Of a stretch of 64,000 nucleotides of DNA, positions 3,275 to 48,729 are shown piece after piece. The notes under the pieces are model-generated. The model saw nothing but the letters and a program-made list of their open reading frames with translations, did no database searches and had not been told where the DNA came from. Made by a program: the position numbers and the translations under genes. The stretch is taken from positions 486,847-550,846 of the forward strand of contig CAWHAA010000004.1 of the NCBI GenBank assembly GCA_963827275.1, written 5' to 3'. Every line of letters starts with the position of its first letter. Positions within the stretch are counted from its first letter, which is position 1. The stretch is from an uncultured Spirochaetota bacterium (lineage in GTDB: Bacteria > Spirochaetota > UBA4802 > UBA5550).

Positions 3275-3727
3275 TTATACGATACGGGATTCGGGTAGAA
3301 TGCGTGCTATATTGGGTGGATAGCCCCAGATGAATTTCCAGTATGTGATATTATCTATCATATCTTTTATTATAACATAATTTTTATAACGATAGTTATC
3401 GGTATTAGCCTCTTTTAGAATGCTATTTAAGTATTTCGATACAGCATATGAAAGAATCAATGAAACCGACATTTTAAGCAGTTTCCTCAAATCCAGCATG
3501 TACTCATAATCATCAACCCGCAGCTGGATATGAAAAATGCGCCAGTCCTCCGGGTTGCTTCGTTCCTGGTATCTAACCATAGAGCCGAATCGTCCCGGAT
3601 CGGGAATATCATCCATAACCAGTTTTATGAGCGTAACAATTACATCCGACCGTGAAACACCCTTTAATTGTGCCGCCAGAGTGATCCTTTGTAAAGTCTC
3701 AGCATGAATATTAAGGGTTGTTTCCAT
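3275..3727 (-). CDS. hypothetical protein in AT-rich island (no recognisable motif)
   Basis: 150-aa ORF with I/K/N/Y-rich composition in a ~640-bp AT-rich segment that contrasts with the ~60% GC flanks. Confidence 0.4.
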   Translation of the reverse strand: METTLNIHAETLQRITLAAQLKGVSRSDVIVTLIKLVMDDIPDPGRFGSMVRYQERSNPEDWRIFHIQLRVDDYEYMLDLRKLLKMSVSLILSYAVSKYLNSILKEANTDNYRYKNYVIIKDMIDNITYWKFIWGYPPNIARILPESRIV

Positions 3728-7011: not shown

Positions 7012-7893
7012 ATGGAAATGGAAAAAGTTACCATATGGTACCTTAAGGACAATGATACCGGTGCGAAGCTCTTAACTGCCATTACGGGACTCGGCCTGAC
7101 GGTCAATGTCGTCGCCGGCCACAAACTGACCCACGCCAATATCATAGAAGAAGAGATTAATATCTTCATCTATGATATCGCCTCCACTGACCCGGAACTG
7201 CTGGTGGACGAAATTACGAAAGACGAGCGCCTCCGCAGCTGCCTGAAGTTCCTGATGGTGAAGAAAAGCCAGGTCAAGGGAATTACGCGTCTGAATTACA
7301 ACCTGATGCACCTCGAGTTCCTTAACAGGCCCGTTGACAAGAGGGAATTCATGCTGCTTCTTGAAAAATCTATAATCGTCGAGCGGTATCGCGAAATAAT
7401 GAAGTTCATATCACGAGAGGCTGAGTCGAGGATCGAGGCGTATGAAGGCCTGATGGATATTAACCGCAAAAATGTGTTTGAATCTGAAAAAGAGAAAGAA
7501 GCATTTGAAAAGATACTCGACTTTGAAAAAAACCTGATACGGCAGCAGTCCAACCTGAGTACGGCCATCCGGGACTTCACGCTCCTGAGGCAGATGAACC
7601 TTTTCGATATGCGCGATCGCATCAAGGCAGAGGAGATGCTCGCCGATCTGAGGCGCAAGGAGCTGATGGACGCCCGTGATGTCATTAAGGCCCAGGAATC
7701 GGTCATAGATTATTCCGCGCGCGAGCTCGACGATGCGAAGAAAATCATCGACGCGCGCGAGAAGGTGGAAGAATTATCGCGCAGCGAGCTTATTGAGCTG
7801 CATAAGGAGATTGATCGCCAGAAGGATCTCAACAAGCAACTGGCTGAACAGGTCAACCGCCTTCTTGCAGATGTCCGGAAGGACAAGGAGTAA
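7012..7893 (+). CDS. atypical receiver-like domain protein with long C-terminal coiled coil
   Basis: ORF 6979-7893; GGTGGGGA RBS favours ATG 7012; N-terminus KVTIWYLKDNDTGAKLL...IFIYDIASTDPELLVDEI...KFLMVKKS follows the receiver-domain pattern (DD pair, phospho-acceptor D, K); remainder is E/K/R-rich heptad coiled coil. Confidence 0.5.
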   Translation: MEMEKVTIWYLKDNDTGAKLLTAITGLGLTVNVVAGHKLTHANIIEEEINIFIYDIASTDPELLVDEITKDERLRSCLKFLMVKKSQVKGITRLNYNLMHLEFLNRPVDKREFMLLLEKSIIVERYREIMKFISREAESRIEAYEGLMDINRKNVFESEKEKEAFEKILDFEKNLIRQQSNLSTAIRDFTLLRQMNLFDMRDRIKAEEMLADLRRKELMDARDVIKAQESVIDYSARELDDAKKIIDAREKVEELSRSELIELHKEIDRQKDLNKQLAEQVNRLLADVRKDKE

Positions 7894-10158: not shown

Positions 10159-10452
10159 TGGTATAAAAAAATTGTAGACACTAAAATTAATCTATTTTAT
10201 ATAGACGCAGTAATTTTAGCAATACATTTTATTGTAAAATAGGGCCCGGGGCGAAATATCGTAAAAAAATCGTCTTTACCGCCCTGCCGGCTCATACTGA
10301 CAGTGCAGAACGGGCTTTTGCACAGACCTGAAATCGGTTGAGACGTATCAGGCCATCTGACGTCCTTTTTTTTATATGCCGGTTAAAATTGAGGGCGAAT
10401 AGCCGGATATCCTTCACCCCTTATCCCGAGATACTTTGCAAGGAGTTTCCCC

Positions 10453-14183: not shown

Positions 14184-16061
14184 ATGGGGCATTTTGAAAA
14201 AAACATCTCCATCATCAAATCCCGCTTTCCCGCGGTGCATGAACTGATTTCCGCCTGCGCCGATGACGCTTCCATCGAAGCGGTCGAGACAAAACAGGGG
14301 GATTTCGTGCCGGCAGTGACGAAAGAGGGGAAGCGAATATTCGTCCACAGCAGGTTTGACCCGGTGAAAGAAGCGGCGCGTTTCCTCGGCGAGGTCGATA
14401 CCGCAGCCCATGACCTGTTCATCGTGTTCGGCTTCGGTTTCGGCTACCACGTGGAGGGGATACTCGCGGGGATGGGAGCGGGTTCTCTTCTCCTGGTGAT
14501 CGAGAAAAGCCCCCTCATGCTGAAGCGCGCTGCGGAGAGCAGGGACCTTGCCCGGGTCTTCGGTGACGAGCGCCTTCTGCTCCTTGTCGCACCCGGCGAA
14601 GATGCCATGGCCGGGGTGCTGAAGGGAAAGTCATCCCGGCGCACCAGCCTTGTCCTGCACCGCGGCTCGTTCCAGGCGGAGCCCGACTACTACGGCAACA
14701 TGCAGGAGATCGCGCGCTCCTACCTCTCCACCAAAGAGGTGAACATCGCCACCCTGGCAAAGTTCGAAAGGATATGGGCGGCGAACATAGCCCGGAACAT
14801 CGGCGCGTTCATTGACGCGCCGGGGGCGAACAGCTTCTTCGGCAGGTTCGAGCATATCCCGGCGATCGTCGTGGCCGCAGGGCCGTCACTCACGCATAGC
14901 CTTGGTTTTATCCGCGCGAACCGCGGCCGCGCGGTCATCGTCGCGGTTGACACCTCCTACCGCATCCTGATGAAACAGGGGATCGAGCCGCATTTTTGCG
15001 TCGTGGTGGACCCCCAGCTGATCAATGCCCGGTATTTCGAGGGAGCGGGTCAGAGCAGCACGGTACTGATCGCTGACCCGACCGTGCACCCCTCCGTCTT
15101 CCGCCTGTTCCGGGGCCGCGTGGCGATGACCGGCGTTGCGTTCGAACTCATGAAGTGGATCGAGCGGCAGTGCGGTGAAAAGGGAGAGATCACGCACGGC
15201 GGGTCCGTATCGACCAACGCCTATGATTTCGCCAAGCGTCTTGGCGCTTCGCCCGTGATCTTGGTGGGGCAGGACCTTGCCTTCACCGACGGCCTCGCGC
15301 ACGCCAGGGGATCATACCTTGATGAGCAGGTGTTCCTGCGGACCGGGAGGCTCTATACGCCGGAGATGCTGAACCGGTTCCAGCTCACTGCTCTGCCGAA
15401 AATTATGGTAAAGGGGATCCGGCAGCCGGCCGTGCATACCAACCAGAAGATGATGATATTCCACTCCTGGTTCCAGAAGCGCCAGGACCGGGAGCTGGTT
15501 AACGCGACCCATGACGGCGCGTATATCGCGGGGATCACGCATGTCCCTGCGGGCGAGATCACCCTCCCGGCGCACGATACCGGCATCGACCGCCTTGTCG
15601 ATGACATCTTCCGGGATGCGGCAGGCCATACCGCGCAGGACGCGCGGGAGCGCCTGAAGAGCAGGGTTGGCCTCATCCTGGGGGAAATCGATGCGCTTCT
15701 TCCGGTCCTGGGCAGGGCGGTGGGACTGGCCGGGGACCTCCAGACACTCATGCGGACCAGGGGCAGGGGGACGGGGGATGCCGGGGGTCAGAGCAAGCTT
15801 GACTATGTGCTGAAAAAACTCGCCGAAACCGACCGCATCGTGGAATCCCGGAAAAACGCGAAAGACATGATCAGCTTCACCATGCAGCGGGTGGTGCATA
15901 CCATAACCGAGGGACACGCGATTGACGAGGACGACGGCGCCTGCAGCGAGGATGAGCTTGTCGCAAAGCGGTCCCGCTACCTGTACCAGGGCCTGCTTGA
16001 CGGCGCCCGGTTCAACGCAAAGATCCTCAAAAAGATGGCGCGCCTTCTCAATGGACGCTGA
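14184..16061 (+). CDS. motility-accessory-factor-like protein (DUF115/MptE-like domain), putative flagellin glycosylation factor
   Basis: N-terminal FVHSRFDPVKEAARFL and central VVAAGPSL...AVDTSYRIL resemble the Campylobacter Maf/PseE family architecture; assignment by eye only. Confidence 0.55.
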   Translation: MGHFEKNISIIKSRFPAVHELISACADDASIEAVETKQGDFVPAVTKEGKRIFVHSRFDPVKEAARFLGEVDTAAHDLFIVFGFGFGYHVEGILAGMGAGSLLLVIEKSPLMLKRAAESRDLARVFGDERLLLLVAPGEDAMAGVLKGKSSRRTSLVLHRGSFQAEPDYYGNMQEIARSYLSTKEVNIATLAKFERIWAANIARNIGAFIDAPGANSFFGRFEHIPAIVVAAGPSLTHSLGFIRANRGRAVIVAVDTSYRILMKQGIEPHFCVVVDPQLINARYFEGAGQSSTVLIADPTVHPSVFRLFRGRVAMTGVAFELMKWIERQCGEKGEITHGGSVSTNAYDFAKRLGASPVILVGQDLAFTDGLAHARGSYLDEQVFLRTGRLYTPEMLNRFQLTALPKIMVKGIRQPAVHTNQKMMIFHSWFQKRQDRELVNATHDGAYIAGITHVPAGEITLPAHDTGIDRLVDDIFRDAAGHTAQDARERLKSRVGLILGEIDALLPVLGRAVGLAGDLQTLMRTRGRGTGDAGGQSKLDYVLKKLAETDRIVESRKNAKDMISFTMQRVVHTITEGHAIDEDDGACSEDELVAKRSRYLYQGLLDGARFNAKILKKMARLLNGR

Positions 16062-16201
16062 TTCATTTTTTTTCTTGCTTTTTCAAATGAAAATATTTTT
16101 ATACATGTATCAATACACCATGTGACTTGAACAAAAACGCACAAAAAGCAGTTTTTTTTGTCACATGGGCGTCATGCGTGACGCTAATCCAGTAGAACGG
16201 G

Positions 16202-16732
16202 TTGCCCGATACCATGTTTGCGAAAAACAGGGACTTTGCCGAGACATACAGCGACCTGTACCCGGTTGTCTTCAGTGCGGTATACCGCAAGGTGAGGAGC
16301 CGCGAAGACGCGGAAGACATCAGCCAGGAGCTTTTCATCAAGCTGTATGATAAGCTTGGCGAGGTCGAAAACAGGAGGAAATGGCTCTACGGCGCCCTGA
16401 AGCTGGAGGTGATGGCCTATTACCGGAAAAAGAAGCCGGGTGCCGTCGATATTGACGAGGTCTTTGACGATGTTGCCCTCACGTTCGTTAACGGCTTCCG
16501 CGACACGCGGATCATGATCAGCGATGCCCTCGAAGACCTGGATAATTTCAGCGACAGGACGGACCAGGCCCTCTTTGACCTTGTTGCGGTGCGCAGTTTT
16601 TCTTACGAGGAGGCGGGGGCGCAGCTCGGCCTGTCAAAGCGGCAAGTACGGTACCGGTATGGCCTGATCGTAGACCGGCTGGTTGATTATTTTAAGAAGA
16701 AGGGGATCAATAGCCTGGAGGAACTCTTATGA
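16202..16732 (+). CDS. ECF-type RNA polymerase sigma factor (sigma-70 regions 2 and 4)
   Basis: Region 2 ...DAEDISQELFIKLY...; region 4 HTH SYEEAGAQLGLSKRQVRYRY; true start may be ATG 16214. Confidence 0.8.
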   Translation: MPDTMFAKNRDFAETYSDLYPVVFSAVYRKVRSREDAEDISQELFIKLYDKLGEVENRRKWLYGALKLEVMAYYRKKKPGAVDIDEVFDDVALTFVNGFRDTRIMISDALEDLDNFSDRTDQALFDLVAVRSFSYEEAGAQLGLSKRQVRYRYGLIVDRLVDYFKKKGINSLEELL

Positions 16733-17472
16733 ATGAAAGCCCGAACATTTTGCTGTTCGGCGAGGTCCTGCACAAGTACCGTTTTACGGAACCTGCGCCG
16801 GCGGACATACAGCACTTCATCAGGGAGAACAAGCGGAAGCAGTTTCAAAAGATCATGAAACGCACAGCCGGCTATTCTGTCCTGTTCGCGCTTATATCGC
16901 ACATGTTTTTTACAATCAGGAAATACGGCATTGCGATTACGATCGTCAAGAGCGCGATACTTCTCGGGGTCCTCTCGCTCATCACGGCCGCCGCGGTTAC
17001 GACAGGCGTCTACCTCTTTGTCGTGCGCGGCGCGCAGGACGCGGTCATGGCGCCCGCGATGGAATTTATCAGGGGCGCCGTCCGGGAAGGCAATGCCGGG
17101 GACCATGACGACTACCTGAAGGAGCCCCCGGCGGTCATCGAAGACCGGCTGGGCATACAGCCCTTTGCCGGCGTACATATGCCCGATGCGCGGGCAGCGC
17201 GCCTGTCCGACCGGATGGCGAAGACGCTCTCCTCCCTGCGCGGCAACGACCGCGTGGTGAACCTGCGGCTCGGCCGCGGCGGCAGGAAATCAGGCATGAT
17301 GCTTTTCGGGAGCGTTGAATCGTCCGCCGGGACCTGGATTGTGTCCGCACGCGTTGCGAGCGTGAAGGATTCCAGGATACTGTTTTATGACACCGAGACG
17401 GCAGGCTCGGAGCCGGATCTGGAGGGTGCCTGCGACCGGCTGGCGCGCAGGATATATGATGCCATCAGGTAG
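16729..17472 (+). CDS. putative membrane-anchored anti-sigma factor
   Basis: Start overlaps the sigma stop (ATGA); single TM; Ala/Arg-rich periplasmic tail; context-based call. Confidence 0.45.
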   Translation: MNESPNILLFGEVLHKYRFTEPAPADIQHFIRENKRKQFQKIMKRTAGYSVLFALISHMFFTIRKYGIAITIVKSAILLGVLSLITAAAVTTGVYLFVVRGAQDAVMAPAMEFIRGAVREGNAGDHDDYLKEPPAVIEDRLGIQPFAGVHMPDARAARLSDRMAKTLSSLRGNDRVVNLRLGRGGRKSGMMLFGSVESSAGTWIVSARVASVKDSRILFYDTETAGSEPDLEGACDRLARRIYDAIR

Positions 17473-18463
17473 AATCGCCGCATGCCTGGCGCTGGCCTTC
17501 CTGGCCGCGGGCCCCGCCGCAGCGCCTTCCGGCGCCGGGGAATCCGGCGCTGCCAGGCCCAGGATTGCCGTCGTCAGTTTCGCGGAGAATAACACGGACG
17601 CCGGCACGGGACGTGCGGTCAGGAACAGCGTCGAGATGAATTTTTTCAAAGACGGCTCATTCGTGATCCTGGAACAGAGCCAGATGGAAAGCATTATCCG
17701 GGAGCGCAAGCTCCAGACATCGGAATGCAGGGACGCACAATGCGCCGCGCGGCTGGGGCTGCTGATGAAGGCCGATTACGTCATCATCGGGAGCGTTGAT
17801 AAACTCAATACCTATACCGTGACCATGAAGGTGGTGAACGTAAGGGAGGGGAGCATTGTCATCTCCGAATCGGGCGAAGCGCGGGAAATTGCGGACCTGC
17901 GTCCGGCATCCGAAGAGCTGACCCGCAGGGTCGCGGAGAGGATCAAGGGGATCGGCGGCAAACGGCGCAGGTTCGAGTATCCCGTGTACATTACCGCCAA
18001 CTTCCAGTACGCGTTTCCCGTCGGCTACCTGCGGCGGCTCGCCGCTGCCGGGTATGGGGCTTCGGTGAGCGCCCGCCTCGAGGACATCTTCGTTAAAAAC
18101 GTGCTCGCCGGCGTCGAGGTCCAGTTTCTTTATTTTACCGGCAGAAAAACCATGCACCATGCCATGATGGTCCCGGTGACGGCTCAGTTCGGGTATGCCC
18201 TGGACGTGTGGCGGTTCTCTTTCGTTCCCCTGGTCTCGCTGGGGACCGTGTACTCAATGAACTATTATTACGCGGACATGCTGCGGCTCAGGAAGACCCA
18301 GCGGAGGGGCTTCCAGTTTATGCTTAAGGCCGGGATGACCGTTGATTGCATGGTGTATAAGAATTTCCACGTAAGGATCGGTGCGGAGTACGGGAGTTTG
18401 TTTGAGAAGGGCGGTGACGCCCCCTTTATCTCATGCGGCGCCGGCGTGGGGGTACAATTTTAA
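17456..18463 (+). CDS. secreted protein with CsgG/LpoB-like N-terminal domain and C-terminal beta-rich region
   Basis: Signal peptide MMPSGRIAACLALAFLAAGPAAA; RIAVVSFAENNTDAG...FVILEQSQMESIIRERKLQ...LGLLMKADYVIIGSV matches the CsgG-family pattern; 3rd gene of the ECF operon. Confidence 0.5.
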   Translation: MMPSGRIAACLALAFLAAGPAAAPSGAGESGAARPRIAVVSFAENNTDAGTGRAVRNSVEMNFFKDGSFVILEQSQMESIIRERKLQTSECRDAQCAARLGLLMKADYVIIGSVDKLNTYTVTMKVVNVREGSIVISESGEAREIADLRPASEELTRRVAERIKGIGGKRRRFEYPVYITANFQYAFPVGYLRRLAAAGYGASVSARLEDIFVKNVLAGVEVQFLYFTGRKTMHHAMMVPVTAQFGYALDVWRFSFVPLVSLGTVYSMNYYYADMLRLRKTQRRGFQFMLKAGMTVDCMVYKNFHVRIGAEYGSLFEKGGDAPFISCGAGVGVQF

Positions 18464-18498: not shown

Positions 18499-19134
18499 TT
18501 ATGCGCCTGACGGGAAGAAGTCCCATGCCCTGAAGATAAGCTTCAGGGCGGCGATCGGCTCGAGCTTCGCTCTGGTGATGGTTGAGTCCGGCGAGCGGGT
18601 CAGATCAATGCCGAAACCCGACCTGAATCCGAATTCCACGCTTATCGTCATATTCTCTATGGTGTGTATGTTGGCTCCCACGACCGCGCCGAATTTGGTG
18701 TATAGTATCGGATCGTATATCCTGTTATTTTTGTTGATAAACTCATATGCGAGCGAAATCTGCGGTCCGGCCCAGAGCCTCAGGAAATGTGAGCGCATGA
18801 AACCAAAACCGAAAGTATTGGAAAATACAATAGTATTGGTGTCCCGGGAGCTATTCTCGTACAGGGTATTCAATCGTCTTGTAGTGGTATAGCATTCGAG
18901 ATTTGCGCGATAATTGAAGAGCTGGTCCTTCGCCACCGCGGTATCAAACACGAGATCGATCCCCTGCATCTTCCCAATGAGTCTGTCCATGAGCGTGGGA
19001 TGGGACGGCTGGAGCGGCCGGGCAGGCAAGGCCGCGACGGTCCTGTTCAGGCCCAGTCCGGCCGACGAGAGGGGCTGTCCCCCCAGGACCAGCAGCGCCA
19101 GCGCAAGAGTGCCATATGCCAATATCCTTTTCAT
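18499..19134 (-). CDS. outer-membrane beta-barrel protein (porin/OmpA-like family)
   Basis: ORF 18499-19176, start MKRILAYGTLALALLVLGG; alternating amphipathic beta-strands; C-terminal aromatic residue pattern. Confidence 0.5.
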   Translation of the reverse strand: MKRILAYGTLALALLVLGGQPLSSAGLGLNRTVAALPARPLQPSHPTLMDRLIGKMQGIDLVFDTAVAKDQLFNYRANLECYTTTRRLNTLYENSSRDTNTIVFSNTFGFGFMRSHFLRLWAGPQISLAYEFINKNNRIYDPILYTKFGAVVGANIHTIENMTISVEFGFRSGFGIDLTRSPDSTITRAKLEPIAALKLIFRAWDFFPSGA

Positions 19135-19437
19135 AACCGCCCTGTTCAAGATCACGCCACAAAAATAATAGTGCATTTCCCATCGTCAAGTATTTTAGTG
19201 ATTTTTGATAAAACGATTCCCGTGATTTCAGCCTGACCGGGTTGCTTTTCCGGTAGCGGAAGGGCTCGTAACAGTTGCTGCTGGACCCCTCATGAAATTT
19301 TTTTACAAAAATTTTGTCACTCCCGGCATGGTCCCGACGCGTCTCTATCAGGAAGCGATGCTTCATGCGGGCCGCGCCGGTGTTTTGCACTGACACGGTT
19401 CCGGGTATAATCTAAATCATTTTTCGGAGGAAATTTT

Positions 19438-21690
19438 ATGAAACGGATTTTTTGTATTATTCTGTCCGTTCTCTTTCTGGCGGGCATGATGGGATGTAAC
19501 GGCGACGGCGGGAGCATGCTGCCGTTGCTGGGATTGGGGGGGGCAGGAGAGTCGCCCGAACCAGATGCGTTGAAATACATGGAGTACATGTATGACAATC
19601 AAAACGGGAAACGGCTCAATGACCAGGCCGTGAGCGGCATGCCGGACTCGGATGAGTTCAAGGCTGAGCTGGGCGAATACATGAGCGCCCCCTTTATTGA
19701 AGAGCTTGGCAACAGCGGAGAAAATGCCGAGTCCGCCAACTGGTGGGAACGGCTCGATGTCAACGCCGATGAGGTCACTAATTACCTTGGTACAGCGGCA
19801 GGCCGGCAGGCGCTGCAAAATTACATGTCGCCTGATGGCGATATGAAAGCGAACATCATGCCCGGGGTTTCCATGGAAGGTCCCATGAAAAGCAGTGATG
19901 TCATGCTTGAGTGGGACACGTACAAATCGACCATCAGGCTTCTTAATGATATGCACGGGATATTGACGATGAACAATATCATCGGTGTGGGTTTGTGGGT
20001 ATTCAGCCAGATAAATGCCATAAATCAGAAACTTGATACAATACAGGCGACCATTGAGCTTGGTTTTGAGCAGACCCTCTATAAGCTGGACACGATAGAG
20101 GCGTGGCTGAAGGAGCAGGACCTCGTTGAAGCCAAAAACACCGTCAATGCCAAGATAAAATCATTCGCGAATCTCGAGGGTTATGATGATTCCTACAGGC
20201 GTTCAGTGGTCAAGGAATACTTTGCCACCGAGCATCAGGTCCTGTTTGAGCAGGCATATAAATCGGCCAAGGAGATAACCGCCCACCTGAATGCGAGGGA
20301 ATTCAGCGTTGATTATACAACGGTCCCGGGCAGCATGCTCTATTCTCACATGGTGTTCATGCGGCAGATGAGCGAACTCCGGCTCGCCTTCGCACCGGTG
20401 TTTTATTCGCGCCGCGATCTTCTCAGCTTCAGGGCCAACTGGGCCGAGTCGGACCTGGTGTGGCTGAAGGAGATAAAAGACGCCTTCCTGAGCGATCCTG
20501 ATTGCACTGCGGACGCGACGTATTATTCCCAGGTGTGCATCCTGCTCGCTTCGTGGGAGATCGAGCTCAGGGCCCATATCGGGCTTATGGGCGGAAACGA
20601 TATACGCGGCATCGACCTCGAAAACGCGAGCAACATCAGGAATGACGAGGCATTCGGGACCTTCGGTGATCTGGACGACATCGCGGACAGCGGTTCCTGC
20701 GGCGAGGCCCTTACCGGCAATGCAGGCGATTTCCTCTCGAAAATGTTTGCTCCGGGCGTATCACTTGAAGGCGTGTTCGATACCGGCAGGTCGGGGGAGC
20801 TGGCGGACGGCGCGTATCTCCGTATCGTGCACAGCGGCAGGAACCTCCTTTCTGATCTCAGGCTGGTGCCGGTCGTGAAGTCGCTGCTCAGGCCGATCGA
20901 CCAGGTCGCACCGGCAAAGGGCCAGTTTTTCATCGATCCGGCGCTGGGGCGGTTTGTGCTTCCCCGGCCCGATTACTGGTGCAAGATGGAAACGGCGGCG
21001 AGCATGACCGAACCTGAGCTTCGCGGGGATGTGAAGCCGGAGGTGACCCTGACAAGCGGCGCACTGGCGGCAGTGGCGGGAAAGTTCGGCAACTGCATTG
21101 AGCTTAATGGCAACGCCGCAAGCATATGGGACCTCTATGCCTTCGGCAGGTCCGGGGTTGCTCCCGAGGGCACGCTTTCCGCCTGGTGGAATCCCGACGG
21201 CTCGCTTGATTACTATTTCAGAGTTTTTATCGGCGGGGCCAACAGTTACGTGGATATTAAAAATAATTATGCAAGGATCGTCATCGACGGATCTGAGCGG
21301 ACAATAAAAACGGGCCTCGACCTGGACCGGAAGTGGAACCACATTTACGTGGTCTGGGACATCGCCCAATCGCTGTCAAACAACATCAAGACTGTCCGTG
21401 TGTTCATAAATGGTGTCGAACAGGCGTCGTGCTCTGATGTATTTACCCGCGGCGTGTTTTCTTGCAGGGCCGAGTCGCACATGGGGATTTTTGGCAGCAA
21501 TAACAAGGTGGACAATATAAAGATATGGAAACATGTTGTTTCAGAGGACCCGAACTGGGAATATAGAAACGGGATCGGCCGTGAGAAGGCGCTTCATGTT
21601 ATCTACGGCCCCGATGCCAATGCCGAATATGATTACCGCCCGAAGCTGACAGGGTCAGGAAATGGGGTCGGGTATTATTATATTCCGTAG
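19438..21690 (+). CDS. secreted lipoprotein, N-terminal all-helical domain + C-terminal concanavalin-A-like lectin/LamG domain
   Basis: Lipobox LFLAGMMGC; C-terminus LSAWWNPDGS...WNHIYVVWD...VRVFINGVEQA...DNIKIWKHVV is classic LamG/pentraxin-like; N-terminal half helical with weak Cry-toxin domain-I-like patterning. Confidence 0.7.
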   Translation: MKRIFCIILSVLFLAGMMGCNGDGGSMLPLLGLGGAGESPEPDALKYMEYMYDNQNGKRLNDQAVSGMPDSDEFKAELGEYMSAPFIEELGNSGENAESANWWERLDVNADEVTNYLGTAAGRQALQNYMSPDGDMKANIMPGVSMEGPMKSSDVMLEWDTYKSTIRLLNDMHGILTMNNIIGVGLWVFSQINAINQKLDTIQATIELGFEQTLYKLDTIEAWLKEQDLVEAKNTVNAKIKSFANLEGYDDSYRRSVVKEYFATEHQVLFEQAYKSAKEITAHLNAREFSVDYTTVPGSMLYSHMVFMRQMSELRLAFAPVFYSRRDLLSFRANWAESDLVWLKEIKDAFLSDPDCTADATYYSQVCILLASWEIELRAHIGLMGGNDIRGIDLENASNIRNDEAFGTFGDLDDIADSGSCGEALTGNAGDFLSKMFAPGVSLEGVFDTGRSGELADGAYLRIVHSGRNLLSDLRLVPVVKSLLRPIDQVAPAKGQFFIDPALGRFVLPRPDYWCKMETAASMTEPELRGDVKPEVTLTSGALAAVAGKFGNCIELNGNAASIWDLYAFGRSGVAPEGTLSAWWNPDGSLDYYFRVFIGGANSYVDIKNNYARIVIDGSERTIKTGLDLDRKWNHIYVVWDIAQSLSNNIKTVRVFINGVEQASCSDVFTRGVFSCRAESHMGIFGSNNKVDNIKIWKHVVSEDPNWEYRNGIGREKALHVIYGPDANAEYDYRPKLTGSGNGVGYYYIP

Positions 21691-21719
21691 CACTGATTGA
21701 AATCGATGGTTTTTTACAT

Positions 21720-21756
21720 GATGGGTGGGGTGAATTGCCCCATCCATCTTTATTAT
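21720..21756 (+). terminator. rho-independent terminator of the LamG lipoprotein gene
   Basis: GATGGGTGGGG-tgaattg-CCCCATCCATC (11-bp stem, 1 mismatch) followed by TTTATTAT. Confidence 0.55.
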
Positions 21757-21767
21757 ATGCAGTCACG

Positions 21768-24488
<2,721 letters not shown>

Positions 24489-24755
24489 GGATAGTATCCC
24501 TGTACAAAATATCTATCTTGTAATAAAAACGCGCTGTCCTTTTGTCAATAGTTAATTTGACCGCGGCGCACCGATCACGCCAGGATTACTTTCACACTGG
24601 CGGTTTTTTCAAAACGTACTGTCCACTTTGCGGCCATATGTCAGTTGCACCAACTATGTATAATCAGCAGGGCTGTTATTTATTCTTGACTTTTTCATGC
24701 AAGGGGGTATCTGTACATGCACGCCATACTTTACCATCTGCAAGGGGAGGAATTT

Positions 24756-25679
24756 ATGAAACGATTTTCATATGCAGCACTTATACCGTTGATCGTCATC
24801 AGCCTCTATTGTAAGAAAGAAACAAAGGTACAGCGGGAAGGCGTTGTGAACCTCCTGACAGGCGCTGTCACTGTCATCGACGGCGAAAAAAAGAGCACCG
24901 CCAGGGTCGGTGATGTTGTCAGGCAGGGGATGATAATCGAAACCGCGGACAACTCGTTCGCTGACATCTATTTTGATGATAGTGCGGTCAAGATCCTGGA
25001 AAACAGCGTGGTGGAAATCAGCGAGCTTGAATTAAACATACGTGAAGAATCAGAGAAGACGAGGTTCCATGTTACAAAAGGCAAGGTTTTCGCCAAGGTG
25101 GCGCGAAAGCTTTCCAAGAAGGACCGGTTTGTGGTAACCACACCGACCGCCACCGCCGGGGTCCGGGGCACGGAATTTCTTGTGGCGGAGGAGTTGAACA
25201 AAGGTCTGGTCGCCACTCTCAATGGAACGGTCGCGGTTACGAACGAAGTCTCCGCTGACAAGCAGGTTATAGACGTGACCGGTGGGAAAGAGGTAGTCAT
25301 CGAGATGGATAAATTGATGACTCTGCAGGACCTGTCCGCGGAGAACAGGAGGCTCCTCGAGGGTATAACACGGAATTTCCAGGACGCGAAGAAAGAGATC
25401 CGGGAACGGTTTGAAAAAAAGCGGGAAGAGATCCGCAAGGCGGTGGAGGACCAGCGCCAGAAGAACCTCGATTCGATTGAAAAACAAAAATCCATTGACC
25501 TGCAGAATGTGGAGGAACAGAAGGCGCTTGATAAGGCCAATGTCGAAAAATTGAAGATCAATGCCGAGAAAACCGCCGACCAAGCAAAGGAAAGTGTCTC
25601 CAGACAGCAGGAAGAAGCAGAGCAGAAACTTGAAAGCGTGAAGCCGGATATAAAGAAGTTCAAAGGGACTCTGGAATAG
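24756..25679 (+). CDS. FecR-domain protein with K/E-rich C-terminal coiled coil (lipoprotein)
   Basis: ORF from 24717; RBS AGGGGAGG before ATG 24756; lipobox ISLYC; FecR-like ...DVVRQGMIIETADNSFADIYFDDSAVKILENSVVEI...TATAGVRGTEFLV. Confidence 0.7.
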   Translation: MKRFSYAALIPLIVISLYCKKETKVQREGVVNLLTGAVTVIDGEKKSTARVGDVVRQGMIIETADNSFADIYFDDSAVKILENSVVEISELELNIREESEKTRFHVTKGKVFAKVARKLSKKDRFVVTTPTATAGVRGTEFLVAEELNKGLVATLNGTVAVTNEVSADKQVIDVTGGKEVVIEMDKLMTLQDLSAENRRLLEGITRNFQDAKKEIRERFEKKREEIRKAVEDQRQKNLDSIEKQKSIDLQNVEEQKALDKANVEKLKINAEKTADQAKESVSRQQEEAEQKLESVKPDIKKFKGTLE

Positions 25680-25737: not shown

Positions 25738-25790
25738 TTTACTCTGACCCCTCCCGGGGATATTGAAAAGTAGAATTTTACTCTGACCCC
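25738..25790 (+). repeat. two direct copies of TTT(T)ACTCTGACCCC
   Basis: tttACTCTGACCCC 25738-25751 and ttttACTCTGACCCC 25777-25790, 30 bp upstream of the GT4 gene. Confidence 0.75.
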
Positions 25791-25820: not shown

Positions 25821-27083
25821 ATGAAGAACGTTGGATTCATATCGACAAGAATATCTGGCACTGACGGAGTAAGCCATGAGATCGAAAAATGGGCCGCCGT
25901 GCTTGAGAAGAATGGCCTGTCCTGCTCCTATTGCGCCGGGGAAGTCGATCGGCCACGGGAACGCTGTCATGTTATCGATGAAGCCCATTTCAGGCACCCG
26001 GACATCGACACTATTAACCGGAGCGTATTTGGAAAAACAATCAGGCCGGAGAAGATAACCGACCTTATCCATGTGTTATCCGCACACTTGAAAAGCGAAC
26101 TATCAAACTATATTCGGCGTTTTGATGTCGATTGTATAATAGCCGAAAATGCGCTTGCCATTCCAATGAATATCCCTTTAGGGATAGCGTTGACAGAGCT
26201 GGTTGCAGAGACCGGTATTCCGGTTATAGCCCATCACCATGACTTTGCGTGGGAGCGTGAACGATTCCTGGTCAATGCCGCTGGTGACTACTTGCAGATG
26301 TGCTTTCCGCCTGTACTGCCCTCCGTGCTCCATGTGGTAATAAATTCGCTCGCGCGGAGGTCTCTTGCGCATCGTCGGGGCGTGACAAGCACCGTTATTC
26401 CCAATACCATTGATTACGCCAATCCACCCAAACCGGCTGATCCCGGGGCAATTAAAGGGGTCAGAGTAAATGCGGGAGTGTCCGATGGTGAAATTTTTGT
26501 TCTCCAGCCCACACGCGTGGTGCCGCGCAAATGCATTGAGCGCTCAATTGACCTTGTGAGTGGACTTGCCGGCGCGGGCAAAAGGCTTGTAATCTCACAT
26601 CCCTCCGGCGATGAGGGTGATGAGTACTATACACAATTGAAGGAATACGCGAATATGCGCCAGGTAAGTCTGGTCAGCATAGAATCGGTGGTATCGCCGG
26701 GCCGGTCGGTGTCAGAGCAACGGCCGTATACCATCGGTGAGGTATATCAGGCCGCTGATCTTGTTACATATCCTTCGGCGTATGAGGGATTCGGGAACGC
26801 CTTCCTTGAGGCAATTTATTTCAGGAAGCCAATTTTAATGAATCGCTACCCGATTTTCATAGCTGACATTGAGCCAAAAGGTTTTGAGTTATGTCTTATA
26901 AATGGGTTTGTTACCGTTGATGTGATCAGGTATGTAGAGCGAATTCTTTCAGATCCGGATGCTCGTAAGAAGATGGTAGATAAAAATTATAGTATAGCGA
27001 GCGAGTGTTTTTCTTATCAAAGGCTTGAAGATCTTTTAATGGGTGTGGTGGGCTGCCTCAGACCTCGATCTCCTTGCAGATGA
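25821..27083 (+). CDS. glycosyltransferase family 4 (GT-B, Glycos_transf_1)
   Basis: C-terminal GT4 signature ...VTYPSAYEGFGNAFLEAIYFRKPIL...; 420 aa; contains an intragenic copy of GGGGTCAGAGTAAAT at 26457-26471. Confidence 0.75.
   Translation: MKNVGFISTRISGTDGVSHEIEKWAAVLEKNGLSCSYCAGEVDRPRERCHVIDEAHFRHPDIDTINRSVFGKTIRPEKITDLIHVLSAHLKSELSNYIRRFDVDCIIAENALAIPMNIPLGIALTELVAETGIPVIAHHHDFAWERERFLVNAAGDYLQMCFPPVLPSVLHVVINSLARRSLAHRRGVTSTVIPNTIDYANPPKPADPGAIKGVRVNAGVSDGEIFVLQPTRVVPRKCIERSIDLVSGLAGAGKRLVISHPSGDEGDEYYTQLKEYANMRQVSLVSIESVVSPGRSVSEQRPYTIGEVYQAADLVTYPSAYEGFGNAFLEAIYFRKPILMNRYPIFIADIEPKGFELCLINGFVTVDVIRYVERILSDPDARKKMVDKNYSIASECFSYQRLEDLLMGVVGCLRPRSPCR
26457..26471 (-). repeat. intragenic copy of the repeat core (GGGGTCAGAGTAAAT)
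   Basis: exact 15-mer shared with 34591-34605; encodes K-G-V-R-V-N in the GT4 gene. Confidence 0.7.
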
Positions 27084-28685: not shown

Positions 28686-28700
28686 GGGGTCAGAGTAAAA
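28686..28700 (-). repeat. copy of repeat core (GGGGTCAGAGTAAAA) just upstream of the RAYT gene
   Basis: exact core match. Confidence 0.6.
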
Positions 28701-33878: not shown

Positions 33879-33967
33879 GCTCTGACACCTCGTTTTCAGA
33901 ATATTTTACTCTGACCCCGGTTTCCCATTTTCAATTTACTCTGACACCAAATATTTACTCTGACCCC
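33879..33967 (+). repeat. tandem array of four ACTCTGAC(C/A)CC repeat cores
   Basis: gCTCTGACACC 33879-33889; ttttACTCTGACCCC 33904-33918; tttACTCTGACACC 33935-33948; tttACTCTGACCCC 33954-33967; lies between icmF and the convergent sulfatase gene (last copy overlaps its 3' end). Confidence 0.75.
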
Positions 33968-35892
33968 AGGCCTTTCCTTCGTGGCGGTTCAGATGTAGGC
34001 CAGAGTCTGTTTGAATTCAGTATTTTCTGATTAATGTAAATATCCATGAGCCTTTTTCGCAGACGCTTCATCACTGCGGGCTTCCCTCTCCCGGCAAGAT
34101 TGTGCTCCTCCCGGGGATCGGTCGTGAGGTTAAAGAGATATTCTTTGCCGGTTTCGGAATGATGAATGTATTTCAATGGATATTCCACAATGCCAAGGAA
34201 CAGGCCATTATACGGTTGTATCAAGTATACCGGTCCTGTTTTTACGCCAGGTGACACCAAAGATTGCCCGAGAAAATGCGTTTTCACGCCTGATATGCCC
34301 GCAATGTCGAGTATGGTGGGTGCGATATCGAGCTGGGAATAGGCCTCGTTGAGGATGCGTGGCCCAATTCTGCTGTTCCATAGTATCAGCAGGGGGGTCC
34401 GGAAGACCTCATCGTAGAACCCGACTTCATTGTGCGAGATTCCATGTTCATTAATTGGAAAACTGTGATCGCCGGTGATAATTACAGCTGTGTTGGCGTG
34501 TTGCGGTCGTTTGGCTATTCCTTTCAACAGGTCTCGAAGACCCTGATCGGATAAATGGATGGAATTGGCGTAGCGCTGATCGATCGTAGTGGGGTCAGAG
34601 TAAATCAAACACTTATCTTTCGGTACGTAATCGAACCACATATGGTTCGATGTCGTTGCCAGGAGAGCGAAGACCGGCCTGCCGCCGTTCCGCTGCCTGA
34701 TGCGTTCCATCTGGCGGAGGCATAGTTTATAGAAGAGGCCGTCCTCGGGGCCCCAGCCCCATACCTGCGGGGCGTCCGCATCAGTCAAAAATTCGTAGGC
34801 GGAATGGATATGCCGGAAGCCGGCCTTTTTCATAAAGGCCCTGGTGTTATCGAAATCGAGCTCGCGGGCGGCCTGCATGAACAGTGTGTCATATCCGGCA
34901 TCGTGCAGTAGCTCCGGGAGCGCCCTGAAGGAAAGCTCGGGGAATGACGTGAAGATTTTTCCGCGAATGCTCGGTAGCACGGACAGCAAGACCGCGGCCT
35001 GTCCCTTGCATGTCTGGACGGAATTGCCGTAGAAGCGCTCGACGTAGAGGCCGCGGGGGATGAGTGAATTGAATACCGGCGTTATCTCCTTTCCCTCCGG
35101 GGACTTCTTCCTGACTACATTGGCGTTATATGATTCAACCATTACCAGGACAATATCCGGCCTGGATGATCCCCTCGGAAGGGCCGGCGACGCGTTGAAT
35201 GTTGTCAGGTACGGGTATCCGCTAACGCTGATGCCGGCCATGGGGTCCTGGAAGGGATAGCGGAGGATTCCCCGCAGGAGGCCGGTGAATTCATCATGGG
35301 TCTTGACCGGCAGCAGCAGTATCACCGCATAGAGCAGAGCGGCCACGACTGTTTTTTTCGCCGCATGCGGGTATTCTGGCGGGGATACCAGAATTTTTTT
35401 CCGCCAGTGAAGCATGAGCAGGAGTACGAGAGATATCCCGATTATGATGAAGAACCAACGGGGAAAAATTCCGATGATGGTGTACCAGGATTCCTTGTAA
35501 AAGCCGAGGGTGAAATTATCGATAATGATGGAACAGTTGAGCGGGATGTGTGTTATGAGATAGTAGGTGTGTATCATTGTAAACAGCGTTAAAAAGAGCA
35601 TGTTGATGACAAGCCGTACCGCCCGCACCCTGCTGGCCGCAAGGTTGATAAGCTGGACCGCGACAGTGGCCGTGAATATGCTGTAACAGATATACAGTGC
35701 CGATGTTATGGAGAGATCGAAAGGCCGTATGCCGTAACGCCGCTGGAATCCGTATAAAAAAAATATCATGAGGATGACTGTCAGGGTATTCATGCAGCCA
35801 AGATCCAGGGGGAGCCACTCACGTACCAGCTCGCGATATCTGCGGGCTCTCTTTGTGATTATGTCTAACGTGGTGGTATCGCTCCTTGTCAT
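33955..35892 (-). CDS. LTA-synthase/sulfatase family membrane protein (alkaline-phosphatase superfamily)
   Basis: 5 N-terminal TM helices; extracytoplasmic sulfatase domain (DIVLVMVESYNAN..., ITGDHSFPINEHG); contains intragenic repeat copy 34591-34605. Confidence 0.8.
   Translation of the reverse strand: MTRSDTTTLDIITKRARRYRELVREWLPLDLGCMNTLTVILMIFFLYGFQRRYGIRPFDLSITSALYICYSIFTATVAVQLINLAASRVRAVRLVINMLFLTLFTMIHTYYLITHIPLNCSIIIDNFTLGFYKESWYTIIGIFPRWFFIIIGISLVLLLMLHWRKKILVSPPEYPHAAKKTVVAALLYAVILLLPVKTHDEFTGLLRGILRYPFQDPMAGISVSGYPYLTTFNASPALPRGSSRPDIVLVMVESYNANVVRKKSPEGKEITPVFNSLIPRGLYVERFYGNSVQTCKGQAAVLLSVLPSIRGKIFTSFPELSFRALPELLHDAGYDTLFMQAARELDFDNTRAFMKKAGFRHIHSAYEFLTDADAPQVWGWGPEDGLFYKLCLRQMERIRQRNGGRPVFALLATTSNHMWFDYVPKDKCLIYSDPTTIDQRYANSIHLSDQGLRDLLKGIAKRPQHANTAVIITGDHSFPINEHGISHNEVGFYDEVFRTPLLILWNSRIGPRILNEAYSQLDIAPTILDIAGISGVKTHFLGQSLVSPGVKTGPVYLIQPYNGLFLGIVEYPLKYIHHSETGKEYLFNLTTDPREEHNLAGRGKPAVMKRLRKRLMDIYINQKILNSNRLWPTSEPPRRKGLGSE
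34591..34605 (-). repeat. intragenic copy of the repeat core (GGGGTCAGAGTAAAT)
   Basis: identical 15-mer to 26457-26471; encodes L-I-Y-S-D-P on the sulfatase coding strand. Confidence 0.7.
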
Positions 35893-43307: not shown

Positions 43308-43439
43308 CCGATAGTTATCGGTACTGTTTAAGTATTAATTTACTCTGACCCTGCGACGTCACACATTAATTCCGATAGTTATCGGTAATAAAGTTACTCT
43401 GACCCCGCAATCACATGCAAGAATCCCGATAGTTATCGG
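43308..43439 (+). repeat. composite repeat array: 3 x CCGATAGTTATCGG(TA) palindrome interleaved with 2 x TT(T)ACTCTGACCC(C)
   Basis: palindromes at 43308-43321, 43372-43385, 43426-43439; cores at 43339-43351, 43394-43406; spacer 43407-43425 (gcaatcacatgcaag...) recurs at 48698-48715. Confidence 0.8.
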
Positions 43440-43499
43440 TAAAAAGGCAGAAAACGCTGGTTCTATCTTCCCGGTCTGTCCCGCTCCACCGACCGCAAT

Positions 43500-48682: not shown

Positions 48683-48729
48683 TTACTCTGACTCCCGCAA
48701 TCACCTGCAATGATACCGATAGTTATCGG
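48683..48729 (+). repeat. composite repeat unit TTTACTCTGACTCCC-N18-CCGATAGTTATCGG
   Basis: 5 nt after the antiporter stop; near-identical to the unit at 43394-43439. Confidence 0.75.

Follow-up and report, generated by a model that had tools for sequence, protein, structure and literature searches.

LamG-bearing surface proteins and envelope genes under the control of sigma factors of the extracytoplasmic function (ECF) type are well known. The LamG proteins of the Laminin_G_3 family (PF13385) have in common a jelly roll, the motif W-x-H-x-Y-x-V-W-D and the motif D-N-h-K-I-W, which is followed by an acidic helix. The subject here is a gene in a stretch of 64,000 nucleotides (nt) from an uncultured Spirochaetota bacterium (contig CAWHAA010000004.1, positions 486,847 to 550,846), called the window below, in which the open reading frame at 19438–21690 on the plus strand codes for a protein of 750 amino acids (aa) with such a LamG core. 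In contrast to other LamG proteins, the core lies inside a unit of ~370 aa, with a beta subdomain of ~130 aa before it and a tail of 48 aa after it, and this unit moves as a whole. The unit is not a named family of Pfam, NCBIfam or PHROGs. It is somewhat probable that the 750-aa protein is a cell-envelope lipoprotein, induced by the neighbouring ECF sigma factor, which acts in an adhesin-like way, probably by binding a glycan, and is neither an enzyme nor a toxin. What is new here is its helical domain, the ~370-aa head that it shares with giant phages at their tail-fibre loci, the conserved cluster of five genes and the promoter motif.

Several described systems resemble parts of this protein or of its locus. 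The best PDB matches are to the HCN/NTNH lectin-like subdomain of clostridial neurotoxins (E about 3e-7 over 180–240 columns), and in both cases the jelly roll comes after a domain of long helices. However, identity is 8–16%, the target-normalised TM-score does not exceed 0.37, and the spirochaete protein is without the zinc protease and the beta-trefoil. Another comparison is with phage tail-fibre or receptor-binding proteins that have distal LamG-like domains, and large phages encode true homologues of the head next to their genes for tail fibres, tail collar, fibre assembly and baseplate. Unlike these, the 750-aa protein is a chromosomally encoded protein with a Sec/lipoprotein signal, and its gene belongs to a regulatory cluster and is not a virion gene. 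The likeness to the Cry delta-endotoxins is only broad, a helical domain joined to a beta domain of the carbohydrate-binding type, whereas the number and lengths of the helices differ, the beta-prism domain II is missing and a lipoprotein signal is present.

The regulatory setting is comparable to that of ECF modules of the FecI-FecR type. Here, likewise, an ECF sigma factor is joined by a co-transcribed membrane protein as anti-sigma candidate, and an AT-rich tract with a -35/-10 motif precedes both the sigma operon and the neighbouring lipoprotein gene. Where the FecI-FecR type has a TonB-dependent receptor as partner, this cluster has a CsgG/LpoB-like protein that carries a probable beta-barrel, and the anti-sigma candidate matches no family. 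The ECF groups of Spirochaetes have been described in a paper whose main text mentions no such CsgG-type context (PMC7826278). The literature on LamG domains in jumbo-phage fibres, on LamG lipoproteins in Leptospira and on ECF factors in a CsgG context yielded nothing specific.

A head module in lipoproteins and phage tail-fibre loci

An exhaustive search of 1.84 billion protein representatives returned 172 relatives of the 750-aa protein, most of which, in proteins of about 400 to 2,535 aa, align at aa ~380–750 alone. Over this part of the query the homology with proteins from phage tail loci reaches E = 1e-37 to 1e-122. The region aa ~381–750 is one conserved module of ~370 aa that comprises a beta subdomain, the LamG domain and a tail, and its boundary was set by the alignment start of the phage and Big_5 homologues (query positions 380–393). 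In its N-terminal part the module has, in order, the motifs LE(D/N)ASN..G.G.FG, (Y/F)D.G.SG, (Y/F)(L/I)RIV.NG.N and (Y/F)(I/V)DP..G.F.LPRP.YWSK.E, followed by GKFGN, GT.S.W, W.H.Y.VWD, R.F.NG, DN.K.W.HVV.EDP.WEYN.G.GRE.A.H.IYG, Y.P and GVGYY. Furthermore, D500, P501, P509 and P511 are invariant across the stand-alone modules.

The beta-rich N-terminal subdomain of the head (20578–20967, plus strand; aa 381–510) reads GLMGG..LENASN..FGTFGD..FDTGxSG..YLRIVHSGRN..FIDPALGRFVLPRP and contains strands in the structural model. It is followed by the LamG or concanavalin-A (ConA)-like jelly roll (20968–21543, plus strand; aa 511–702). The conserved C-terminal tail of 48 aa (21544–21687, plus strand; SEDPNWEY..GxGREKALHVIYG..YDYRPKLTGSGNGVGYYYIP) returns with its last strand (aa 743–748) into the jelly roll, and it is near-identical between phage and spirochaete proteins.

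The module occurs in three settings. In the first it comes after a helical domain, as in the family of the 750-aa protein. The second setting is found in lipoproteins whose N-terminal regions are Big_5 immunoglobulin (Ig)-like, with one or more such domains, or FN3-like. Pfam assigns Big_5 in P0006, the combination of Big_5 and module is also present in P0023, P0024 and P0030, and FN3-like or triple-Big_5 N-terminal regions are found in P0048 and P0069. The stand-alone modules P0086 and P0131 have a signal peptide and a lipobox-like Cys. In the third setting there is no signal peptide, and the module is single (~400 aa), double (~780–850 aa), triple (P0007, 1,150 aa) or contained within proteins of up to 2,535 aa.

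The module proteins without a signal peptide are phage-encoded. The gene of P0059 lies on a 115-kb contig between two genes for Phage_fiber_rpt proteins, with tail-collar-fibre and tail-fibre-assembly genes by PHROG nearby, and the gene of P0025 comes after baseplate hub and wedge genes. The protein with three module copies, P0007, is encoded on a contig of 252,876 bp that is listed in IMG/VR as a viral genome. A motif-pattern scan of IMG/VR identified one viral genome, this same contig (IMGVR_UViG_3300033143_006101, locus L005), and scans with a single protein and with another long motif pattern gave no match. Between the spirochaete lipoproteins and the modules of phage tail loci the identity is 30–45% over about 370 aa, and the C-terminal motifs are near-identical. 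Because the head is carried on many different N-terminal regions and is also encoded in tail-fibre loci, it is probably a binding head, and this is the main argument for the proposed role.

The phage regions that encode the module (L005 10001–13453, L004 10001–11239 and L007 9417–16154) hold one to three tandem copies within tail-fibre or baseplate regions. The stand-alone phage modules share the N-terminal peptide M.K..I.KQ...V.Y.G.W.GLAGG.EVQLEDAS. No annotated proteins were gained by searching with a profile of the module alignment, and there is no second copy of the module within the window.

The assignment of the jelly roll relies on Pfam, on an AlphaFold model and on Foldseek. Pfam assigns Laminin_G_3 to aa 578–702 (28.0 bits, E = 2.9e-6), and the match also appears in 9 of 20 relatives. 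Beyond this, searches of NCBIfam, PHROGs and PDB sequences assign nothing to the 750-aa protein. The model of the full protein, which was built on an alignment of 50 sequences, has a mean pLDDT (predicted local distance difference test) of 84.1 and a pTM (predicted TM-score) of 0.69. With this model, Foldseek returned 157 PDB and 168 viral matches at E <= 0.001; the best are LamG/ConA-like jelly rolls, and the top matches all span about 180–250 columns. They include the lectin-like jelly roll of botulinum (BoNT) and tetanus (TeNT) neurotoxins and of NTNH, the L-type lectins Emp47p and VIP36 and a GH43 arabinanase, as well as numerous LamG/ConA-like proteins of phages, virion and tail proteins among them. 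The best fold matches are lectin-type or binding jelly rolls and not glucanases, and these lectin-type neighbours of the fold point to a glycan as ligand. An original prediction, made from the sequence of the window, had placed a LamG/ConA-like domain at the C-terminus, and both the Pfam match, although marginal, and the model with its Foldseek matches bear this out. The motifs that it quoted are all present, namely WNPDGS (aa 584–589), WNHIYVVWD (633–641), VRVFINGVEQ (653–662) and DNIKIW (692–697).

In the model, the signal peptide and tether (aa 1–37) are disordered and followed by a small helical subdomain (aa 46–130), a disordered loop (aa 137–159) and a hydrophobic stretch of low confidence (aa ~160–183). 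Then come a single heptad-repeat helix of 64 residues (aa 181–244), four more long helices (aa 251–385), short strands with loops (aa 390–510), the jelly roll of about 14 strands (aa 513–697, mostly at pLDDT >90), a short helix (aa 706–712) and the final strand at aa 743–748. The helical N-terminal domain of the original prediction is indeed all-helical and has no family assignment, while its boundary lies at ~385 and not at ~450, aa 386–510 being beta strand and coil that group with the LamG domain.

The all-helical domain corresponds to 19567–20577 on the plus strand (aa 44–380), with the subdomain, the disordered loop, the hydrophobic stretch (here taken as aa ~163–190), the 64-residue helix and the four long helices. 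No assignment was obtained for it in Pfam, NCBIfam, PHROGs or a PDB sequence search. Among 152 listed relatives from the search of 1.84 billion representatives, only about 20 cover it, and a profile search for further relatives yielded a single fragment. By its sequence distribution the domain is new and restricted to a lineage, with no detectable relatives outside one spirochaete clade. Its invariant residues are Y52, A273, S276, P297, F307, S312, R315, L328, R332 and D339. Ile and Leu recur with a clear 3-4 heptad spacing in the first half of the 64-residue helix, and this pattern is stronger in the homologues than in the protein itself. Modelled alone with AlphaFold (aa 40–389; pLDDT 78.5, pTM 0.74), the domain had no Foldseek match in the PDB at E <= 0.001. 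The best match is the five-helix lipid-binding domain of fungal Mp1p (E = 0.26, target-normalised TM-score 0.48).

The protein starts with a signal peptide and lipobox (19438–19497, plus strand; aa 1–20, MKRIFCIILSVLFLAGMMGC), in which Cys20 is the predicted lipidation site. In MKRIFCIILSVLFLAGMMG-C20, a hydrophobic core precedes the Cys and the lipobox pattern is recognised on inspection. The lipobox of spirochaetes is loosely defined, and MKRIFCIILSVLFLAGMMG-C20 is compatible with it. The Pfam model LPAM_1 gave no significant match on the 750-aa protein (E = 6.5). Throughout the close family Cys20 does not vary; of eight more distant members, seven have an (S/G/A)C lipobox aligned with it, and the eighth begins without a signal peptide. 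The claim that the protein is a lipoprotein is supported by this invariant Cys20 of the close family together with the hydrophobic signal sequence before it. A flexible tether rich in Gly and Pro follows (19498–19566, plus strand; aa 21–43), with pLDDT <50 over aa 1–37; across homologues its length varies, with many indels.

The open reading frame at 19438–21690 is a real, conserved gene, and its exact sequence is recorded from a contig of 748,609 bp. Full-length homologues exist at 99, 70, 53 and 47% identity, all from metagenome-assembled genomes (MAGs) or metagenomes, and the sole taxonomic label on them is Spirochaetes/Spirochaetota. A ribosome-binding site GGAGG, read directly from the sequence (19426–19430, plus strand), lies 7 nt 5' of the ATG and is kept in the related loci L001 and L003. 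An intrinsic terminator (21720–21748, plus strand) with a stem of 13 pairs followed by TTTATT begins 30 nt past the stop codon; this stem and T-run agree with the earlier statement that the gene has a terminator of its own. A homologous hairpin is also found 3' of the orthologue in L001.

The gene cluster and its promoter motif

The lipoprotein gene belongs to a conserved cluster that starts with a gene for an ECF sigma factor of 176 aa (16202–16732, plus strand), which matches Sigma70_r2 and Sigma70_ECF in Pfam and the sigma70-ECF model TIGR02937 (47.9 bits against a cutoff of 42.9). The next gene (16729–17472, plus strand) overlaps the stop codon of the sigma gene by 4 nt and encodes a membrane protein of 247 aa that matches no family. 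Its position, its hydrophobic segments and the fact that in all relatives it immediately follows the sigma gene make it a putative anti-sigma factor. The third gene (17459–18463, plus strand) encodes a CsgG/LpoB-like periplasmic domain with a probable outer-membrane beta-barrel; the Pfam match to CsgG has E = 1.3e-9, LpoB and DUF3280 also match, and the outer-membrane beta-barrel model of the TP0733 family matches weakly. The start of this gene was taken from the gene call of 334 aa in the 99%-identical relatives (L009), the longest open reading frame starting at 17387. On the minus strand, 18499–19176 encodes a divergent secreted protein of 225 aa, which has a signal peptide and no family match. 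The original prediction had called it the gene of an outer-membrane protein; the divergent orientation and the signal peptide are present, and no family match supports the outer-membrane identity. No similarity was found between the anti-sigma candidate and the CsgG-like protein, or between the 225-aa protein and the barrel region.

The conserved order of genes is ECF sigma factor, putative anti-sigma factor of ~245 aa, CsgG-like protein, divergent secreted protein (in close relatives), helical lipoprotein and Big_5 lipoprotein. All relatives with available DNA or gene calls have this cluster. It is kept in L008 despite other flanking genes and an orthologue with only 35% identity to the 750-aa protein. 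The divergent gene is kept as a gene of 209–225 aa in close relatives and is absent in L008 and L006. A scan of a genome collection with the single protein found only one locus, in a Leptospirales MAG, where the cluster has the Big_5 member and not the helical one. Directly 5' of the sigma operon, 14184–16061 on the plus strand encodes an MptE-like/Maf-type protein of 625 aa that partially matches PseD, a flagellin modification protein, and this position is kept in close relatives.

The Big_5 paralogue carries the same head. In relatives, the gene that follows the helical lipoprotein gene, or in L006 the CsgG-like gene, is a Big_5 gene for 608–642 aa (~1.9 kb). It is located at 7769–9888 in L001, at 5549–7426 in L003 and at 10358–12232 in L008, and in the more distant relatives it is directly 3' of the helical lipoprotein gene. 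The window and the 99%-identical relatives have no Big_5 gene, only a short intergenic region (21691–21839), and the repeats that are 3' of the Big_5 gene in L001 follow here directly after the terminator of the lipoprotein gene. Since distant lineages have the paralogue, a loss is the simplest explanation for its absence from the window genome. The heads of adjacent genes within a genome are sometimes closer to each other than to their orthologues: the identity is 61% for P0002/P0006 and 50% for P0003/P0023, which share idiosyncratic LamG stretches, and only 36% for P0004/P0024. This likeness hints at gene conversion or at a co-selection of specificity.

The usual ECF promoter has an 'AAC'-type -35 and a 'CGT'-type -10 element about 16–17 nt apart, and ECF sigma factors typically autoregulate. 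The layout of a motif found in the window, TGTCAC-N15-GACGC, fits this type of promoter. It is present at 16159–16184 (plus strand), 18 nt 5' of the sigma open reading frame, where it is probably an autoregulated promoter, and at 19315–19340 (plus strand), 98 nt 5' of the ATG of the lipoprotein gene, where a conserved A/T-rich tract precedes it. The pattern TGTCAC-N14-17-GACGC has exactly these two matches in the window, against 0.11 expected. When the upstream regions of the lipoprotein and sigma genes were aligned separately, both alignments had the same element, an A/T-rich tract, TTTTGTCAC, 15 nt and GACGC.

The conservation of the motif extends to the relatives. It is found at both positions in L008 and L009–L011 and at one of the two in L001, L002 and L003. 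The copy upstream of the sigma gene is conserved in L001, L008 and L009–L011 and has a variant form in L006, and the relative position of the copy upstream of the lipoprotein gene is unchanged in L003, L008 and L009–L011. The latter copy is invariant among four aligned orthologues, one of which has just 35% protein identity. Since the motif is shared by the sigma and lipoprotein genes and autoregulation is typical of ECF factors, we infer that the lipoprotein gene belongs to a small regulon of the neighbouring sigma factor.

The proposed role and its alternatives

As an adhesin-like lipoprotein, the protein would be anchored by the lipidated Cys20 and held off the membrane by the tether of ~25 residues, which is flexible in the model. 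In the helical domain (aa ~44–380), the heptad-repeat helix of 64 residues would probably serve as a stalk and possibly as an element of oligomerisation. The head of ~370 aa (aa ~381–750) would then be displayed and bind a ligand, most likely a glycan, and production of the protein would rise when the neighbouring ECF pathway is activated. The gene itself, its domain boundaries and fold class, the homologies of the module, the conserved cluster and the common promoter motif are shown by the data, and of the scheme we infer the surface exposure, the class of the ligand, the oligomerisation and the sigma dependence of the protein.

Several observations weigh against this role. The Laminin_G_3 score exceeds the curated cutoff of 27.6 bits only marginally, and wherever a source gives a name to the 750-aa family, this name is solely 'hypothetical protein'. 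The module has no match in the GenBank phage collection (by tblastn) or in PHROGs, so that the link with phages rests on metagenomic contigs; by the same result, the module is an undescribed family in phages as well as in bacteria. In the helical domain, the polar residues Y52, S276, S312, R315, R332 and D339 are invariant, which suggests a role beyond that of a passive stalk, and the hydrophobic stretch rich in Gly and Ala before the long helix is unexplained and modelled at low confidence. Catalysis is possible, since glucanases and lyases are among the proteins with a ConA-like fold. Finally, a sigma-70-like promoter match (19384–19411) lies nearer to the ATG than the ECF-type motif, and the ECF dependence may be partial, with this promoter adding a basal expression.

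The tight and wide linkage of the lipoprotein gene to the genes of the sigma factor, the anti-sigma candidate and the CsgG/LpoB-like protein with its probable beta-barrel would also suit a sensor or regulator of the ECF pathway. Such a lipoprotein would bind an external or periplasmic ligand and signal via the CsgG-like outer-membrane protein to the anti-sigma factor, after the manner of lipoprotein sensors or of cell-surface signalling, and the common promoter motif would put it under feedback control. However, the window genome is without the Big_5 lipoprotein and the Leptospirales relative without the helical one, while the regulatory genes are kept in both. Because the lipoproteins are lost singly and the regulatory genes stay, the lipoproteins appear dispensable and interchangeable, more like outputs of the pathway. 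In addition, phage tail-fibre proteins carry the head too and play no part in signalling, and we regard a sensor as unlikely.

An envelope enzyme that acts on polysaccharides is an improbable explanation. Either the helical or the ConA-like domain would be catalytic, as a lyase, a glucanase or an enzyme like the phage depolymerases, which are often carried by tail-fibre proteins. The helical domain has Arg, Asp, Ser and Tyr residues that are invariant and would be in line with an active site, glucanases belong to the ConA-like superfamily, and one high-ranking fold match lies in the GH43 arabinanase. However, there is no glycoside-hydrolase or lyase family match in Pfam or NCBIfam, and the best fold matches are binding jelly rolls, with no recognisable GH16, PL7 or similar entry among the 50 best. 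For the helical domain, no match to an alpha/alpha-toroid or lyase fold was obtained.

The relation between the spirochaete and phage heads allows other readings than that of an adhesin-like output. A domesticated phage head, exposed on the envelope of the host, could occupy or compete for the receptor of phages with the same module, as a decoy or mask, or phages could have copied the head of the host. The module identity and the near-identical C-terminal motifs given above are in favour of it, and so are the LamG regions of adjacent paralogues, which co-vary by lineage and suggest selection or gene conversion on head specificity. PADLOC, however, gave no match to known defence families for the protein, its three neighbours or the Big_5 paralogue, and the gene belongs to a conserved cluster of the chromosome, with housekeeping genes nearby, and not to a prophage or defence island. 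A decoy or mask of this kind is very unlikely. In a wider form, the head would be a recognition unit exchanged between spirochaetes and their large phages, used by the bacterium under ECF-sigma control for masking, as a decoy or for cell–cell recognition, or captured by phages from a host adhesin; this too is improbable. In a more radical variant, the helical domain would be a membrane-active element like those of viral fusion proteins, made up of the Gly/Ala stretch and the heptad repeat, that is delivered by the head.

The original prediction had compared two segments of the helical domain, SMLYSHMVFMRQMSELR (aa 299–315) and DLLSFRANWAESD (aa 327–339), both of which are present, with the pore-forming bundle of delta-endotoxins, and had proposed an adhesin or toxin candidate. 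As a membrane-active toxin, the protein would hold a latent bundle for pore formation or translocation, in the manner of Cry domain I, ClyA or BoNT, that is targeted by the lectin-like head. The order of helical domain and jelly roll resembles the translocation and receptor-binding domains of BoNT, and the neurotoxins and NTNH are the top matches of the jelly roll. However, when the full model was aligned to whole BoNT/TeNT over ~525 columns, the root-mean-square deviation (rmsd) was 22–27 Å (about 25 Å) and the E-values were not better than with the jelly roll alone, which shows that the resemblance to the neurotoxins is that of the generic LamG fold. As a claim of homology, the BoNT-like architecture was rejected, as the generic jelly roll alone matches and the helical part contributes nothing; the zinc-protease light chain and the beta-trefoil C-terminal subdomain appear neither in the Pfam results nor in the model.

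The helical domain itself was compared with the described pore formers. At E <= 10, Pfam found neither Endotoxin_N (PF03945) nor any other pore-former or toxin family in the 20 family members (the protein and 19 relatives), and a three-domain Cry delta-endotoxin was rejected on this result and on the lack of Cry among the fold hits of the helical domain. There is also no match to Endotoxin_M or Endotoxin_C in Pfam, and after the small beta subdomain the protein has just one jelly roll and no beta-prism domain II. ClyA does occur in the list of fold matches, and was rejected as a relative: 2wcd_A ranks 22nd, with E = 3.4, a probability of 0.13 and an rmsd of 30 Å. Among the 50 best fold matches of the helical domain there is no Cry domain I, colicin or BoNT/TeNT translocation domain. 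When the family profile was compared with PDB sequences, the long helix gave weak coiled-coil matches (E >= 0.006) to a BAG domain, influenza HA2, coronavirus spike and paramyxovirus F, which were dismissed as an effect of heptad composition.

The hydrophobic Gly/Ala-rich stretch before the long helix (GILTMNNIIGVGLWVFSQI) is the other feature in favour of membrane activity, since it resembles a transmembrane segment or fusion peptide in P0049 (VIVVGAAIVGVMLSAL) and P0017 (SVSIGTAFAAVSAIAGIY) and is also transmembrane-like in P0015. It is not conserved, however, being polar or absent in P0004, P0008 and P0011, which argues against an essential role in membrane insertion. The helical domain has no similarity to pore-forming bundles, and it is not assigned to a common scaffold either. 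With a protein that is predicted to be lipid-anchored to its producer and a paralogue that swaps the helical domain for Ig-like domains and keeps the head, a toxin is exceedingly unlikely. Thus, of the two roles first proposed, the toxin did not withstand these tests, while the adhesin has gained support from the homologues in phage tail loci and from the heads mounted on Ig- and FN3-like regions.

If the adhesin-like role is true, an unnamed portable binding module of ~370 aa links envelope lipoproteins of spirochaetes to the tail fibres of giant phages, and a helical domain confined to one clade is tied, together with this head, to a compact ECF-sigma cluster with a readable promoter motif. 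The sigma factor, the promoter and two or three target genes would then offer a handle on the regulation of the envelope and on surface recognition in uncultured spirochaetes, a group with few surface proteins of known ligand. For phages that carry the module, it could also be of use in predicting their hosts. This is neither a new class of toxin nor evidence of an unprecedented mechanism; it is more ordinary than the toxin hypothesis, and it is better defined and easier to test than a bare 'hypothetical lipoprotein'.

Repeats and a split gene in the window

The repeat 3' of the lipoprotein gene consists of two copies of a 35-nt unit with 83% identity. The original prediction had reported a repeat array after the gene; the repeats are present in two copies, and they are not a feature of the gene, as they belong to a dispersed intergenic family. 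One unit of this family, (TT)TACTCTGACCCC, has 15 copies at <= 1 mismatch in the window against 0.17 expected, and the second unit, the palindrome CCGATA-(AC/GT)-TATCGG, has 7 core copies against 0.68 expected. Between convergent or adjacent genes, the two units take turns in small arrays whose period is about 43–54 nt, in a manner like that of repetitive extragenic palindromes (REP) or miniature inverted-repeat transposable elements (MITE). The sites in the window are 21769–21846, 43309–43440, 25740–25790, 33907–33967, 2344–2355, 3390–3401, 26457–26468, 28686–28697, 34591–34602 and 48684–48728, and a further site is found in L001 (9905–9995). An Rfam search of the window, the repeats included, gave no match.

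Downstream of the cluster, the gene for homoserine dehydrogenase is split on the minus strand (23192–24488) into an open reading frame of 368 aa (23382–24488) and an overlapping one of 121 aa (23192–23557). The 99%-identical relatives have a single gene of 431 aa including the ACT domain, and a 70%-identical relative also has a split call (365 aa and 39 aa). The split in the window is probably a frameshift, be it a sequencing error or a pseudogene. The neighbouring gene at 24717–25679 (plus strand) encodes a FecR-domain protein with below-cutoff matches to the models of the Leptospira adhesin Lsa33 (E = 5e-37) and of LipL45 (2e-22). In all relatives this gene adjoins thrC and hom, which fits an origin from a Leptospira-related spirochaete.

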